Source of the DNA: an uncultured Clostridia bacterium
Lineage (GTDB): Bacteria; Bacillota; Clostridia; TANB77; CAG-508
Direction of reading: 5' to 3'
Assembly (NCBI GenBank): GCA_944388705.1
Contig: CALXJU010000001.1
Location: 14,674-78,673 of the forward strand
DNA: 64,000 nt
Notes under the pieces: generated by a model
The model's input: only the letters and a program-made list of their open reading frames with translations
Told to the model about the DNA's origin: nothing
Database searches by the model: none
Made by a program: the position numbers and the translations under genes
In this document: positions 42,954 to 58,983 of the stretch, piece by piece
Position numbering within the stretch: the first letter of the stretch is position 1
Layout of the letters: every line of letters starts with the position of its first letter

Positions 42954-43030
42954 GTGCCCATAGTTTAGCTGGATAGAATGCAAGGCTACGAACTTTGAGA
43001 CCGGGGGTTCGAATCCCTCTGGGCACACCA
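42954..43030 (+). tRNA. tRNA-Arg (anticodon ACG)
   Basis: Acceptor stem gtgccca/tgggcac, anticodon stem caagg/ctttg with loop ctACGaa, T-arm GGTTCGAATCC, encoded 3' CCA. Confidence 0.85.
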
Positions 43031-43212
43031 TATTACATTTTTATCATTATTTTTAAATTATTAGATTATATTTATTAAAAAATTTATTCAAAATTTGTTT
43101 TCAAATATATTTCCAGTATATATATTAGAGAAAATATAACTAAAGATAAAATTGCATTGTGATTTATTTGACTTTGCAATATAGTGCAAAATATTATAGA
43201 GGAGTGATATAT

Positions 43213-44058
43213 ATGATAAAATTAGAGAAAAGTGAAAATTATAATAATCAAACTTTTGAAGATATTAAACATATTAATGAGGATGGAATTGAATATTGGT
43301 ATGCAAGAGAATTACAAAAAGTTTTAAATTATAAGGAATGGAGAAAATTTGAAAATGTAATAAATAAAGCAAAAGAAGCATGCAAAAATACTGATGTGAG
43401 TGTGTTTAAGCATTTTGTCGACGTCGACAAGTTGTCAAAACGTGCCAATAATGCGGAAGTTGTGATAAAAGACTATAAACTAACACGTTATGCTTGTTAT
43501 TTAATAGCACAAAATGGAGACAGTAGAAAAAAAGTAATAGCACTTGCACAAACATATTTTGCAGTTCAAACTAGAAAACAAGAAATTAGCGAAAAAGAAT
43601 ATAGTTCGTTAACAGAAGATGAAAAAAGATTTTATCAAAGAGATCTTACAAGAAAAGGAAATTATTCTCTTAATCAAACAGCTAAAAAAGCAGGAGTTAA
43701 AAATTTTGATAAATTTCATAATTATGGATATAAAGGATTATATAATGGAGAAAGTGCTGATGATATTGCAAAAAGAAAAGGTTTAAGATACAGAGAAGAT
43801 ATTTTAGACAACATGGGAAGTGATGAACTTATAGCAAATTTATTTAGAATTTCCCAAACAGAGCAAAAATTAAAAAAAGATAATATACAAACTGAAAAAG
43901 AAGCTAATAAAACTCATTATAATATAGGCAAGAATATAAGAGAAGTAATTGCGAAAAATGGTGGAACTATGCCAGAAGAATTACCTACACCTAAAAAGAG
44001 TTTGAAACAATTAGAAAAGGAAGATAAAAAAATGTTAAATAGAATAAATAGCATATGA
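43213..44058 (+). CDS. DinD/RhuM-family protein (DNA-damage-inducible protein D-like)
   Basis: EDIKHINEDGIEYWYARELQKVLNYKEWRKFENVINKAKEAC...KHFVDV...YKLTRYACYLIAQNGD matches the DinD/RhuM N-terminal signature. Confidence 0.6.
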   Translation: MIKLEKSENYNNQTFEDIKHINEDGIEYWYARELQKVLNYKEWRKFENVINKAKEACKNTDVSVFKHFVDVDKLSKRANNAEVVIKDYKLTRYACYLIAQNGDSRKKVIALAQTYFAVQTRKQEISEKEYSSLTEDEKRFYQRDLTRKGNYSLNQTAKKAGVKNFDKFHNYGYKGLYNGESADDIAKRKGLRYREDILDNMGSDELIANLFRISQTEQKLKKDNIQTEKEANKTHYNIGKNIREVIAKNGGTMPEELPTPKKSLKQLEKEDKKMLNRINSI

Positions 44059-44388
44059 AAAATAAACCTGTTAGATAAGAATGACGATTTTGAAATAAAT
44101 TACTTAAAATATTGAATATTTCAAGATTGTATAGTATATTATTTTCATAATTTAATTATCTTGCAATCGCAAGTTAAAGATTTATTATTTTTTATTTACA
44201 AACTAAATCATTTTTTGGGGCATTTTCTCATTTCTTTACTTAAGACATTATCACATTTCTTTCATACTAGACTTAAAAAATTTTGAAAAATATTTGACAT
44301 TTTCTAAATAATTTATTCTAATAATTATAGAAGACAGATACCACAGAAATGTGGCATGTCTGGTTAAGAATATATTAAGAATACATCT

Positions 44389-44517
44389 CTAACGGTCAAG
44401 CAGAGATGTGTTTTTTTCGTTGTCTAATTTTCTTACTGTAACAACGAGTGCCACAAATAAGGCAATAGCGACAACAGTTACTATTGCAAGTTCAATAATA
44501 TGTAGTACATAGGACAT
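44389..44517 (-). CDS. 42-aa hydrophobic peptide MSYVLHIIELAIVTVVAIALFVALVVTVRKLDNEKNTSLLDR (holin-like/type I toxin-like)
   Basis: Single predicted TM helix followed by a charged tail. Not in the ORF track (<60 aa). Preceded on the same strand by a 44-aa ORF (44543-44677) and a hairpin. Confidence 0.4.
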   Translation of the reverse strand: MSYVLHIIELAIVTVVAIALFVALVVTVRKLDNEKNTSLLDR

Positions 44518-44785
44518 ACAAAAAAGACTAACAAAAGTTAGTCTAGTATTTTTTTAATGTATCTTCTAAAACATAAGAAACTGGTAAAATACTTTCATTG
44601 TCAGTAAACATTTGGAAATCGGTTTTATTCTGTTTATCTCTGTAAACAGATATAGTAATAGTACCTATCTTTTCCATACAAACACCTCTTTTCTTTTGTG
44701 CACAAGAAGATACTAACACATAAACAAGAAAATGTCAAATATTGTAATTGAAAGAGGAACATTAATTAACATAACAAAAAACTTA

Positions 44786-44814
44786 TTGACTTTTACTTTT
44801 AAAATAAATATAAT
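44786..44814 (+). promoter_or_regulatory. consensus sigma-A promoter TTGACT-17-TATAAT for zupT
   Basis: -35 at 44786-44791, -10 at 44809-44814. Confidence 0.6.
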
Positions 44815-44827
44815 GTCATTGGAGATG

Positions 44828-56195: not shown

Positions 56196-56197
56196 AT

Positions 56198-56536
56198 CTA
56201 TATAAATAAATTCATTATAGTAAGAACTAAAGTAGAAAAAAATGCTTTTATTGAATATTTAAATCCTCTTTTTACAAAAACTGCAGGAGTAGAAAGTCTA
56301 TTTTCGCCAATAATAGTTAAAGCAACACAAGGTTCTTCAATTTCACGATATTCTATTATAGCAGTTGAAGGACTTTCTTCAGTCTTTTTTTCTTCTTGAG
56401 CCATAACTTCTTCTTCTACTTGAATTTCTTCATCTTGTAAATTTATATTTTCTTCTATCTCAGAGACTTCTTCTATATTATTTTTATTTAGAATTTCTTC
56501 AGTTTCTTCAATATTTCCTTCTAATAATTTGTCCAT
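56198..56536 (-). CDS. hypothetical acidic protein with C-terminal hydrophobic segment
   Basis: 112-aa Glu-rich ORF with no known domain. Confidence 0.4.
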   Translation of the reverse strand: MDKLLEGNIEETEEILNKNNIEEVSEIEENINLQDEEIQVEEEVMAQEEKKTEESPSTAIIEYREIEEPCVALTIIGENRLSTPAVFVKRGFKYSIKAFFSTLVLTIMNLFI

Positions 56537-56840
56537 AATACCTCCATATAATTATACAATTTTAGTATATCAAGCCAGATTATAAAAATCAAATAAAATG
56601 ATAAAATGTCATAAAAAAGTAATATATTCGTAATATTGTTGTAATATTTTTGATTAATAAATTATAATATATAACTATTTCATAGCAAAAACATATTCTG
56701 GGTCTTCGTCGGGGGTCTTTGCTTATTCAATAGTTATATATTATAATTTATAAAATTTAAAAAATTAACAAAAAATATTGATTTTTGTCGAATAAATGAC
56801 TATAATATCGATAAATGGGATGATAACAAGGAGGAGGAAT

Positions 56841-57902
56841 ATGAGAAAAGCACTTCAAAATCAATTAAACGGAGCTGAACAAGTAAAATATAAAATAATA
56901 GCTGTTGATGATGAAATAGGAATAATTGATTCATTATCAGTTTTTTTAAAAAGGACTGATTATGAATTTGTGGGAATTACAGACCCAGTAGAAGCAATAG
57001 AAACAATAAAAAGAGAACACTTTGATTTGATGTTATTAGACTTTATGATGACACCATTACATGGAGATGAAGTTGTAGAAGAAATTAGAAAATTTAATAA
57101 AGAATTATATATTTTATTATTAACAGGGCATAAAGATTTAGCCCCACCATTAGAAACAATAAAAAGATTAGATATACAAGGTTATTGCGAGAAAAGTGAT
57201 AAATTCGATCAATTACTTTTATTAATAGAGTCAGGAATAAAATCAATAAAACAAATGCAAGAAATAAAAAGAATAAATGATGAACTAGAAGAAACAAATG
57301 AAAAATTAGAACAAGCATATTTAGAAAGTGTTCAAACATTAAGATATACAGTAGAAGCAAAAGATACATATACAAGAGGTCATTCAGATAGAGTATCAGA
57401 ATATTCAGTCTTAATTGGAACAAAATTAGGATTGCCAGAAGAACAATTAAAAATATTAAGAATAGGAGGGTTATTCCACGATATAGGAAAAATAGGAATA
57501 CCAGATAGTATATTACAAAAAAATGCAAAATTAACAGATGATGAATATTCTGAAATAAAAAATCATCCATCAATAGGAGCACATATATTAGGTGCAGCAT
57601 CAATATTTAAAGATATAATACCAATAGTAAAACATCATCATGAAAGATATGATGGAAAAGGATATCCTTCAGGATTAGCTGGTGAAAATATACCATATTT
57701 AGCAAGGATAACAGCAGTTGCAGATACATTTGATGCGATGACAAGTAAAAGAAGTTATAGAGATGCATTAGATTTACAATATGTAAAAGATGAATTTGAA
57801 AGATGTAAAGGAACACAATTTGACCCACAAATTGCTGAAGTATTTATAAATATCTTGAATAATGATTTTGAAAAAATAAAAGAGATACAAAACAAGTATT
57901 AA
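56841..57902 (+). CDS. response regulator with HD-GYP phosphohydrolase domain (c-di-GMP phosphodiesterase-type)
   Basis: Receiver IIAVDDE...MLLDFMM. HD-GYP domain HSDRV...GGLFHDIGK...HHERYDGKGYP. RBS GGAGGAGG before ATG 56841. Confidence 0.85.
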   Translation: MRKALQNQLNGAEQVKYKIIAVDDEIGIIDSLSVFLKRTDYEFVGITDPVEAIETIKREHFDLMLLDFMMTPLHGDEVVEEIRKFNKELYILLLTGHKDLAPPLETIKRLDIQGYCEKSDKFDQLLLLIESGIKSIKQMQEIKRINDELEETNEKLEQAYLESVQTLRYTVEAKDTYTRGHSDRVSEYSVLIGTKLGLPEEQLKILRIGGLFHDIGKIGIPDSILQKNAKLTDDEYSEIKNHPSIGAHILGAASIFKDIIPIVKHHHERYDGKGYPSGLAGENIPYLARITAVADTFDAMTSKRSYRDALDLQYVKDEFERCKGTQFDPQIAEVFINILNNDFEKIKEIQNKY

Positions 57903-57904
57903 GA

Positions 57905-57935
57905 AAAAGAGGCTGTTTTTTAACAGTCTCTTTTT
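57905..57935 (+). terminator. rho-independent terminator
   Basis: agaggctgtt-tttt-aacagtctct followed by a T-run. Confidence 0.6.
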
Positions 57936-58039
57936 GCGTGCCTAAAATATACGCAAAAAGAGAAATATAAAATATGCAAAAAGAATAACTAATTGAATGA
58001 AAAAATAATAGAAAAACAGTATAATATTACCTAAGAGAG

Positions 58040-58983
58040 GTGGTAGATGTGAACATTTTTAAAAAGGGAAATAACTTAACCCTTTGGTGGGTAAGGTTTA
58101 GACGACTCACGGACAATTGGTTATTATATAAAAAACATAAAATAAAAGAATCAACATATTTGAATTATAATTATATTATAAATACATATCTTAATAAAAA
58201 ATTCGCAAAAAAACGATTAAGTTATTTTTTAGATTATGATATGAATGAATTTATAGACAGTTTAAAAAAAACTTATCAAATAAAACTGTAAGAGATATAG
58301 TATTAGTATTAAAATCGATATTAAAATTTGCAGAAAGAAAATATAATACAAACTTTAAATTAGATTTAATAACAATGCCAAGTTCAGAAAAAACAGAATT
58401 ACAGGTATTTAATGAAAAAGAAATAAAGAAACTAGAAAAAATATGTATAAAATCAGAAGATATAAGAGATATAGGAATATTAATAGCAATATATACAGGA
58501 ATGAGGATAGGAGAAATATGTGCATTAAAATGGGAACATATTGATTTAAATAAAAAATTAATAAATGTAAAACAAACATTACAACGAGTTTATGTGGAAA
58601 AGAAAAAAACAAAAGTAATAATAACTCCACCTAAAACTAAAACATCAGAAAGAAAAATTCCTATACCACAAGTATTATATGATGAATTAAAGATTAAGAG
58701 CATAAATTATTCAAAACAGGCATATGTAACAACAGGGCTAGAAGATAAATATATTGAACCAAGAAGTTTTCAATATGTATATAAAAAAGCACTTGAAACA
58801 GGCGAAATTAAATACAGAAATTTTCACTGCTTAAGACATACATTTGCAACAAGATGTATAAGAGTAGGTATGGATATAAAATCTTTAAGTGAAGTATTAG
58901 GACATGCAGATGTTAATATAACATTAAATAGATATGTACATTCTTCTTATGATTCAAAGAAAAGATTTATGGAAAAATTATAA
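58040..58983 (+). pseudogene. phage-type tyrosine integrase split by a frameshift in an A8 homopolymer
   Basis: N-part 58040-58291 is the SAM-like domain. C-part 58375-58983 carries HCLRHTFATRCIRVGMDIKSLSEVLGHADVNITLNRYVH. Frame continuity is restored with A9 or A6 at 58264-58271. Confidence 0.75.

Follow-up and report, generated by a model that had tools for sequence, protein, structure and literature searches.

The subject of this study is a locus within a 64-kb stretch of DNA from an uncultured Clostridia bacterium (contig CALXJU010000001.1). The whole stretch, called the window here, has a GC content of about 25% and contains a single tRNA gene, tRNA-Arg(ACG). Between this tRNA gene and the housekeeping gene tex lie a nonribosomal peptide synthetase (NRPS), a histidine kinase and an HD-GYP response regulator, and we describe how the synthetase and the membrane sensor of the kinase vary together, both within one species and between species. 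A preliminary description of the window had taken this segment for a genomic island. The features that it listed were present at the places it gave, except that one of two small open reading frames (ORFs) is not called as a gene.

Relatives were retrieved with Tex (window 59035-61284), which yielded 80 loci, one genome per species; L numbers designate these and further loci. All 80 derive from uncultured Clostridia in gut metagenome assemblies from humans (Hadza, Nepal, Brazil), goat, rabbit, chicken and mouse, and their Tex proteins are 80-95% identical to that of the window. Contigs 99-100% identical to the window were also found in several independent assemblies. Synteny was scored by tblastn of the window proteins against the 80 loci. 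About 65 loci were informative, the others stopping at contig ends, and of the ~60 syntenic loci only about a dozen extend as far as HtrA. The housekeeping flanks and tex were identified from precomputed Pfam hits on identical contigs.

Gene content of the locus

The leftmost gene of the locus (45627..46748, minus strand) encodes a membrane-anchored serine protease of the HtrA/Do type, with an N-terminal membrane helix and the Pfam domains Trypsin_2 and PDZ. It is divergent from the NRPS gene (46889..54346, plus strand), as had been described. The synthetase, of 2485 amino acids (aa), has the Pfam architecture C-A-T-C-A-T-R, where C stands for condensation, A for adenylation, T for thiolation (carrier) and R for the terminal reductase. 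The approximate spans on the plus strand are C1 46901-48235, A1 48263-49770 and T1 49781-49972 for module 1, C2 50024-51319, A2 51380-52819 and T2 52900-53100 for module 2, and 53210-53998 for R. Both condensation motifs are intact (HHIISDA at aa 129 and HHIVMDG at aa 1175), the two carrier serines are residues 988 and 2030, and GGTGYLG, the motif for NAD binding, is at aa 2112. The A-domain specificity codes are DIFTIAGIFK for A1 and DIYTVGIVLK for A2.

The histidine kinase gene (54359..56182, plus strand) is co-oriented with the NRPS gene and begins 13 nucleotides (nt) past the last base of its stop codon, in agreement with the preliminary description. The only domains detected in the kinase are a seven-transmembrane region (7TM), PAS, HisKA and HATPase. 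From Pfam and from the mosaic conservation profile described below, we divide the protein into a variable sensor (7TM at 54386-55045, PAS at 55052-55390) and a conserved core (DHp from ~55460, ATPase domain at 55841-56170). No relative of the sensor with a solved structure was found at E ≤ 1. Homologues of the kinase number more than 8000 in public protein data, where they are unnamed. A terminator-like hairpin, AAAAAAGCCGTTTAAACGGCTTTTTT, overlaps the end of the kinase gene (56172..56196, plus strand); it was read from the sequence and was not returned by the terminator scan.

Next follows orf112 (56198..56536, minus strand), an acidic ORF of 112 aa with a hydrophobic C-terminal tail and no family match. 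By tblastn, it occupies the same position in at least nine other species, with 43-80% identity, and it may belong to the system.

The regulator (coding sequence 56841-57902, plus strand) is preceded by a promoter found by scanning, TTGATT-17-TATAAT at 56778-56806, which is kept in 17 species inside otherwise unalignable spacers. Its start codon is at 56841, behind an AGGAGG site, and the longest ORF start, at 56796, is not the true start. Pfam places a REC domain at ~56895-57224 and an HD-GYP domain at ~57348-57833, which confirms the earlier identification as an HD-GYP response regulator. The REC residues are canonical (acidic pair DD, phospho-Asp D, T and K), and the HD and HHERYDGKGYP motifs are intact. 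The closest solved structures are the active HD-GYP phosphodiesterases 4MCW and 5Z7C, among the solved phosphodiesterases of cyclic di-GMP (c-di-GMP) and cyclic GMP-AMP (cGAMP). The right-hand anchor of the locus is tex (59035..61284, minus strand), recognized by Pfam Tex domains on an identical contig.

The ~110 nt upstream of the regulator promoter (56640-56750) include a GC-rich hairpin, GGGTCTTCGTCGGGGGTCT, at 56700-56718, which is unusual at 25% GC. Its candidacy as an RNA element was rejected, as this ~110-nt stretch is absent even from the closest species, L001.

Predicted product of the synthetase

From its domains, we infer that the NRPS would release an amino- or dipeptide aldehyde. 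The product is probably N-acylated, because the protein starts with a condensation domain that has an intact HHxxxD motif. Short reductase-ended NRPSs of gut Firmicutes have products that were identified as dipeptide aldehydes cyclising to pyrazinones (reviewed in PMC12327764). The synthetases studied here are likewise short, with one or two modules, and reductase-terminated, and the catalytic motifs of the window's enzyme are intact, the comparison being one of architecture alone. Few biosynthetic genes of the human gut are as common as those for short reductase-terminated NRPSs, and peptide aldehydes inhibit proteases. The products of the gut dipeptide-aldehyde clusters, such as ruminopeptin of Ruminococcus bromii, are reportedly treated as inhibitors of host proteases in work associated with the Fischbach laboratory. 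For these clusters, neither allelic cassettes nor a neighbouring kinase and HD-GYP pair turned up in a literature search that did not extend to the primary papers.

The locus is conserved beside tex

The order tex, regulator, kinase, NRPS was found in 56 of the 80 species-level genomes, and four more loci end within the kinase. By tblastn, tex thus has the regulator and the kinase as neighbours in about 60 of the ~65 informative loci, and the strains of the window's species share one layout. The locus is inherited next to tex across a large lineage of uncultured gut Clostridia with a GC content of about 25%. Only four loci in which 4 kb or more of sequence follows the regulator had no kinase and NRPS there (L014, L048, L060 and L080), and one further Tex locus was without the regulator. 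In L011 and L013, the NRPS/kinase/regulator locus lies on the other side of tex and is oriented as tex.

Six loci (L004, L033, L076, L046, L075 and L064) had 1.3-3.3 kb of extra DNA among regulator, kinase and NRPS, or an NRPS broken into ORFs of 700-745 aa. Insertions may account for this, or synthetases that have become pseudogenes next to an intact kinase.

Discrete alleles within one species

Strains whose HtrA protein is identical to that of the window split into two groups. Compared with the window, L082 is 100% identical over 39.5-50.6 kb and again from 55.4 kb on, versus 47-70% in between. The exact limits of this allele-replacement block on the plus strand of the window are 50,639 and 55,362. 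The left limit corresponds to NRPS residue ~1251, in the C-terminal lobe of C2, and the right limit to kinase residue 335, at the end of PAS and just before DHp. The exchanged block therefore spans both genes, taking in the C-terminal lobe of C2, A2, T2, R and the entire kinase sensor (residues 1-335, 7TM and PAS). The A2 code reads DIYTVGIVLK in the window (allele A) versus DIFQIAGIFK in L082 (allele B), and the A1 code is the same. Allele B was found in six independent assemblies. A third sensor allele (C), 85% identical to B, occurs in a strain background with an identical orf112, as does a deletion variant in which the NRPS is gone and the kinase is truncated. Within this one species, at least three discrete alleles are carried on flanks that are 100% identical. 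The exchange border in the C-terminal lobe of a condensation domain amounts to a natural rule for NRPS engineering.

This deletion or rearrangement variant is seen in L181 (1-5114, matching window 54864-56746), where the kinase is 425 aa long and the NRPS is replaced by genes for a PBP5-type (penicillin-binding protein 5) carboxypeptidase, a hydrolase and a lipoate ligase. This strain could be a non-producer that is also without part of the sensor.

Sensor and synthetase vary together across species

Across species, we distinguished two classes of the locus. Class I kinases have 599-623 aa and a 7TM and PAS sensor, and they stand beside a two-module NRPS. Class II kinases have 657-685 aa and an unrelated multi-pass N terminus, and they stand beside a one-module C-A-T-R NRPS of ~1410-1480 aa. 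This pairing of kinase class with NRPS architecture had no exception in the 53 loci in which both genes could be scored, and on the Tex tree the classes are intermingled. The kinase itself is a mosaic, with a jump in identity at residue ~350. Over residues 1-350, identity was 30-60% for pairs of one class and 10-20% for pairs from different classes; over residues 361-607, every comparison gave 60-90%. The mean identity of the NRPS was 39-45%, versus 85-88% for Tex.

These divergences were compared through Mantel correlations of pairwise-identity matrices. Sensor and NRPS correlated with r of 0.84 in class I and 0.97 in class II, and the partial correlations were still 0.81 and 0.96, respectively, after Tex, the kinase core and the regulator were removed. 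The kinase core and regulator tracked Tex (r of 0.82-0.85), and the correlation of the sensor with Tex was weak (r of 0.58 in class I and 0.25 in class II). The co-variation with the sensor holds for the whole NRPS and not merely for its 3' end. Moreover, sensors were more similar between loci with the same A-domain code than between loci with different codes (identity of 0.63 versus 0.47 in class I, and of 0.75 versus ~0.29 in class II), and the identities of kinase core and Tex were little altered across these code groups.

The main rival explanation for this pattern is that the NRPS product is an outward effector, for instance a protease-inhibiting aldehyde directed at host or competitor proteases, and that the kinase senses an unrelated cue. 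Adjacency, together with diversifying pressure acting on each part separately, such as that of phage or antibody on an exposed membrane sensor, would then account for the association. Adjacency indeed makes co-transfer likely, and in its C-A-T-C-A-T-R architecture the synthetase agrees with the gut NRPS family whose identified products are dipeptide aldehydes (PMC12327764). However, HtrA is equally adjacent, at the other end of the NRPS, and yet it tracks Tex and not the NRPS. The exceptionless match between sensor class and NRPS architecture, and the partial correlations that persist once the relatedness of the flanks is removed, also speak against adjacency as the sole cause.

Exchange was likewise visible in pairs of close species, which were bimodal, being either of the same type or of entirely different types. 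For L024 and L026 versus L032, identity was 0.99 for Tex and 0.96 for the kinase core, against 0.25 for the sensor and 0.30 for the NRPS. Six further close pairs showed a drop of identity ~250 aa from the kinase C terminus. Between L004 and L005, the breakpoint lies at the 7TM/PAS border and the exchanged part still takes in the NRPS, which is a further point against simple adjacency. Between L011 and L013, synonymous divergence (dS) was 0.10-0.13 in the cassette versus 0.59-1.27 in the flanks formed by tex, the regulator and the kinase core. The NRPS and sensor have therefore moved between species as a unit, and recently. A similar dS pattern was observed for L051 and L076. Within types, the ratio of nonsynonymous to synonymous divergence (dN/dS) was 0.06-0.16 for sensor and NRPS alike, indicating that both are maintained by selection and functional.

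We conclude with high confidence, as far as the structure of the locus is concerned, that the NRPS and the membrane sensor of the kinase (residues 1-335) constitute one replaceable cassette between two anchors, HtrA on one side and the kinase core with the regulator on the other. The co-evolution of the NRPS with the sensor is a statistical association only.

Decay of the REC domain in loci without the cassette

Three of the loci without the cassette (L048, L060 and L080), as well as L054, whose locus ends just past the regulator, have a regulator with 47-49% identity. In all four, the acidic pair DD of REC is changed to SN or SY and the phospho-Asp D to N, and the HD-GYP motifs are retained. 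Such a decay of REC without the cassette is expected if the cassette kinase is the phosphodonor of the regulator. It argues against a kinase that is a mere neighbour of an outward effector, although it ties the regulator to the kinase and not to the metabolite.

In L048, L060 and L080, the regulator abuts HtrA, and the gene after HtrA encodes an M23 peptidase or a tadA-like deaminase. HtrA had been proposed to serve in immunity to the metabolite or in its processing. The protease follows the species tree and stays beside the regulator without the NRPS; this proposal was not borne out, and we rejected HtrA as an immunity factor or target within the cassette.

The same observations bear on a second alternative, in which the kinase senses the NRPS product for producer protection or feedback, as lantibiotic sensor kinases do. 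The primary role of the product would then be antagonism, and the cyclic-dinucleotide output would tune envelope or lifestyle for self-tolerance. All of the co-variation evidence applies equally to this explanation, the permanent neighbour of the cassette is a membrane quality-control protease, and inhibition of proteases is a general property of peptide aldehydes. On the other hand, the cassette contains no immunity or transporter genes, and HtrA neither co-varies with the NRPS nor disappears with it. Sequence alone does not separate producer protection from signalling, and we regard it as distinctly unlikely.

A candidate signalling system

The arrangement suggests a strain-specific chemical signalling system, for which we propose the following steps. 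The C-A-T-C-A-T-R or C-A-T-R synthetase would release a short amino- or dipeptide aldehyde, probably N-acylated, or a product of its cyclisation, and the cognate 7TM(-PAS) sensor would detect this molecule outside the cell. The kinase would phosphorylate the REC domain of the regulator, whose HD-GYP domain would then hydrolyse c-di-GMP or a related cyclic dinucleotide. Different cassettes would correspond to different signal/receptor specificities, that is, to pherotypes. Binding of the NRPS product by the kinase, the enzymatic output of the regulator and the chemistry of the product are steps that we infer from domain content and motifs.

The preliminary description had also suggested that the kinase could regulate the metabolite. 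A tie between kinase and NRPS is upheld by the co-variation, but the evidence favours sensing of the product over regulation of its synthesis: we read the kinase as a metabolite sensor because its partner regulator has no DNA-binding domain.

Several observations weigh against a signal and its receptor. The sensor abuts the 3' end of the NRPS gene, and part of the co-variation could be physical hitchhiking. The recurrent breakpoints are not independent evidence, because breakpoints must fall where homology resumes. The code of A1, the adenylation domain distal to the sensor, had a mixed effect on sensor similarity, and dN/dS within types detected no gene-wide positive selection. Pfam returned no DNA-binding domain in the regulator, and classical autoinduction is therefore not evident. 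The REC domain is intact in L014 and L009 without an adjacent kinase, which could be explained by a kinase gene lost recently or located elsewhere. Neither the locus nor the 64-kb window contains a gene for an exporter, a phosphopantetheinyl transferase or a GGDEF protein. Finally, the solved structures that best matched C1 were ordinary elongation-type condensation domains, with the starter domain of the calcium-dependent antibiotic (CDA) synthetase scoring much lower; C1 may be of either the starter or the non-starter type.

Two of these points, the mixed A1 result and the lack of a visible autoinduction circuit, also count in favour of an outward effector. Given the behaviour of HtrA and the class match, we nevertheless hold that explanation to be unlikely. 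We think it rather probable that the locus is a conserved one of gut Clostridia in which a cassette of NRPS and cognate sensor defines pherotype-like specificity groups. For the signal/receptor step taken by itself, the balance tips only slightly, if at all, in its favour. The widest form of the proposal is put forward tentatively, as a possibility that we would not yet call probable: this lineage may communicate by NRPS-made molecules of dozens of mutually exclusive types, with the cassette spread between strains and species by homologous recombination and feeding a shared kinase core and REC-HD-GYP regulator, whose output lowers cyclic dinucleotides.

The segment comprises three independent pieces

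The island reading holds that 43.1-59.0 kb is one acquired element, integrated at tRNA-Arg by means of a phage-type integrase and carrying the NRPS with accessory genes. It is suggested by the terminal positions of a tRNA gene and an integrase, by a phage-associated DinD/Bro-N gene adjoining the tRNA, and by housekeeping genes on both sides. The flanks are as had been described, with pyrC, pyrF, pyrK and pyrD to the left of the segment and, to its right, tex, pflB, pflA, pyrH and frr. (In the left flank, at 39510-41123, a gene with an AAA_18 domain and pyrF are abutting separate ORFs of 227 and 309 aa; in a 99.2%-identical strain, L081, the corresponding 15626-17239 was called as a single 537-aa fusion.)

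The tRNA-Arg(ACG) gene lies at 42954..43030 on the plus strand (ARAGORN; Rfam, 61.8 bits), and a permissive Rfam search of 42-60 kb returned it as the sole match. Directly 3' of it is dinD (DNA-damage-inducible protein D; 43213..44058, plus strand, 43213 being the likely start). The identification as DinD-like was sound: the protein carries the Pfam Bro-N domain and scored 338.6 bits against the NCBIfam equivalog NF008573 (cutoff 242). Of two tiny peptide genes reported next, one of 44 aa (44543..44677, minus strand) is gene-called in public assemblies. The other (44389..44517, minus strand), a strongly hydrophobic 42-aa ORF, appears in the ORF list only and is uncalled by public gene callers; neither has a family match. 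A scan for promoter- and terminator-type sequences placed a hairpin at 44525-44544, between the two, and the 42-aa ORF beside it looks like a small membrane peptide or a type I toxin. The ZIP-family metal transporter (~44834-45610, plus strand; 258 aa in public assemblies; Pfam Zip) does have a near-consensus promoter, TTGACT-17-TATAAT at 44786-44814 (plus strand, 11/12 matches in the promoter scan). Its naming as zupT was too specific, as the protein is ZupT-like yet reaches 129 bits versus an equivalog cutoff of 252.

The comparisons did not bear out an island. As the preliminary description had already noted, the 3' end of the tRNA is not repeated: no copy of at least 10 nt of its 3' half occurs on either strand of the whole 64 kb, where k-mers shared only A/T-rich flank words, and a repeat search of the window returned only the inter-module repeats inside the NRPS. 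There is thus no attachment (att) repeat. Composition is normal as well. Profiles of GC content, GC at third codon positions (GC3) and codon usage showed no anomaly at 43-59 kb, with GC of 0.24-0.30 in the genes of the region versus 0.260 ± 0.026 outside it, and GC3 of 0.08-0.14 versus 0.137 ± 0.037. Moreover, ~60 species-level genomes keep the kinase-to-regulator stretch in synteny with tex, most of them with the NRPS. Conserved order without an att repeat, and an integrase that forms a separate element, are the two outcomes that the preliminary description had itself named as contradicting an island.

The left side told the same story. The series pyr, tRNA, dinD, ZIP, HtrA is present in every strain of the window's species. 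In a relative with 93.5% identical DNA, L187, homology is found only from 45,624 rightward, 3 nt from the HtrA stop codon; beyond HtrA, L187 encodes other membrane proteins, and dinD is not beside HtrA. Since homology with L187 ends at the HtrA stop, the tRNA side is not linked to the NRPS unit. Other species with sequence past HtrA have no ZIP gene there. Relatives anchored on PyrD (78-91% identity) have unrelated housekeeping genes downstream, with tRNA-Arg in one only. Alignment to relatives did not show 43.1-59.0 kb to be absent as a block at the same tRNA, and none of the relatives compared has an empty pyr/tRNA-Arg/tex site. In L099 (3992-4211), pyrD is followed by tRNA-Arg(ACG) and then tRNA-Arg(TCT), versus tRNA-Arg(ACG) only and then dinD in the window, a difference suggesting that the DNA just 3' of the tRNA has been rearranged in the window's species.

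The integrase was the remaining mark of an island. It is a tyrosine-recombinase (phage-type) pseudogene by Pfam (58040..58983, plus strand), and the frameshift previously noted is real, the gene being read in two frames (58040-58291 and 58375-58983) owing to a 1-nt deletion at 58264 relative to intact alleles. A terminator-like hairpin returned by the terminator scan (58997..59020, minus strand) lies between the convergent integrase and tex. The integrase is a solo insertion of ~1.1 kb between regulator and tex, found in the window and in only five other species-level loci (6/81 genomes); species without it have 42-83 bp with one terminator at this site, and L061 has a different integrase. It is present and intact (314 aa) in L014, which has no kinase or NRPS and in which the regulator is followed by topoisomerase and mfd genes. 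Within the window's species, L091 and L093 carry a TGG to TAG change and L096 has an intact gene of 311 aa; in L187, the integrase is split into 77 and 202 aa. The gene was inactivated independently in close relatives, which looks like the ongoing decay of a solo recombinase. A role as a domesticated invertase that controls the locus was considered and rejected, as most species have no integrase and inactivating mutations arose independently within the window's species.

The 16-kb segment thus consists of three pieces independent of one another, and the NRPS has neither the tRNA nor the integrase as a boundary. Positions 42,954-45,623 (tRNA-Arg, dinD, ZIP) are local context outside the NRPS unit. 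Positions 45,624-57,902 (HtrA, NRPS, kinase, orf112, regulator) are a conserved chromosomal locus beside tex. The piece at ~57.9-59.0 kb is a lone integrase and a separate insertion. A single island is, on this evidence, very improbable. The segment resembles tRNA-linked integrative islands in combining, within 16 kb, a secondary-metabolite gene with a tRNA gene and a tyrosine recombinase, but differs from them in the lack of an att repeat, of a compositional signal and of an empty site in relatives, and in an integrase that is not beside the tRNA and is distributed independently of the NRPS. For genome scans, we note the warning that a tRNA, an integrase and a biosynthetic gene may together mimic an island.

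Discussion

If the proposed signalling role is correct, the family of gut peptide-aldehyde NRPSs, so far seen as targeting host proteases, would acquire a self-directed role. Should synthetases pair one-to-one with a swappable receptor, part of this family may serve self-recognition or kin discrimination, and this might change how a common class of gut biosynthetic genes is read. The locus also offers dozens of synthetase/sensor pairs on one chassis, useful for work on ligand recognition by 7TM sensor kinases and as a source of orthogonal signalling parts. Our literature search found no description of an NRPS/kinase/HD-GYP cassette or of NRPS-based pherotypes in gut Firmicutes. To our knowledge, this would be the first pherotype system built on a nonribosomal signal in Firmicutes.

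The closest parallel in organization is comQXPA of Bacillus subtilis, in which the kinase core of ComP and the regulator ComA are conserved. Its signal-making genes and the membrane sensor of its kinase are highly polymorphic within the species and define discrete communication groups, with comQ clusters 65-70% identical in DNA versus ~99% for housekeeping genes (PMC4408185). The locus described here has the same traits of a pherotype locus, namely a hypervariable synthesis gene and sensor next to a conserved kinase core and regulator, with alleles A, B and C and a null variant in strains whose HtrA or orf112 proteins are identical. It differs in that the candidate signal is NRPS-made and not a ribosomal isoprenylated peptide, and in that the output is a REC-HD-GYP enzyme and not a DNA-binding transcription factor. 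Signalling specificity has been demonstrated for comQXPA, whereas here it is a prediction from sequence.

In output, the locus is closer to the Rpf system of Xanthomonas (RpfF, RpfC and RpfG), which uses the diffusible signal factor (DSF). There, the kinase binds the signal and the output is c-di-GMP turnover (PMC5391125, PMC4159695). In both cases, genes for a signal synthase (here a candidate one), a membrane sensor kinase and a REC-HD-GYP regulator stand side by side, and the regulator studied here, with a REC predicted to be phosphorylatable and an intact HD/HHExxDGxGYP signature, sits beside its putative kinase. The Rpf signal is, however, a fatty acid made by a crotonase-family enzyme and not the product of an NRPS, RpfC, as a hybrid kinase, has a phosphorelay (REC, HPt) whereas the kinase here is a simple one, and Rpf is not known to have allelic specificity groups.

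With regard to the synthetase, the nearest case is Vfm of Dickeya, where signature polymorphism in the adenylation domains of vfmO/P defines groups of signal analogues and is linked to a polymorphic membrane protein, a proposed co-sensor (PMC9306890). Adenylation-domain polymorphism is thus linked to a variable membrane protein in both systems. Vfm is, in contrast, a 26-gene proteobacterial cluster whose signal is still unidentified, its co-varying partner is an ABC permease and not a kinase sensor, and it has neither an HD-GYP output nor a cassette with sharp domain-level borders.

More generally, agr of staphylococci and the pyoverdine synthetase/fpvA region of Pseudomonas aeruginosa each contain a hypervariable block made up of the synthesis genes and the ligand-binding part of the receptor, set between conserved flanks and occurring as discrete types common to different lineages. 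The agr system differs from the present locus in its ribosomal thiolactone peptide and DNA-binding regulator, and pyoverdine is an iron carrier taken up through an outer-membrane transporter and not sensed by a kinase. The NRPS/kinase locus of gut Clostridia is a variation on this theme of polymorphic signal and receptor, and one that is both widespread and testable.

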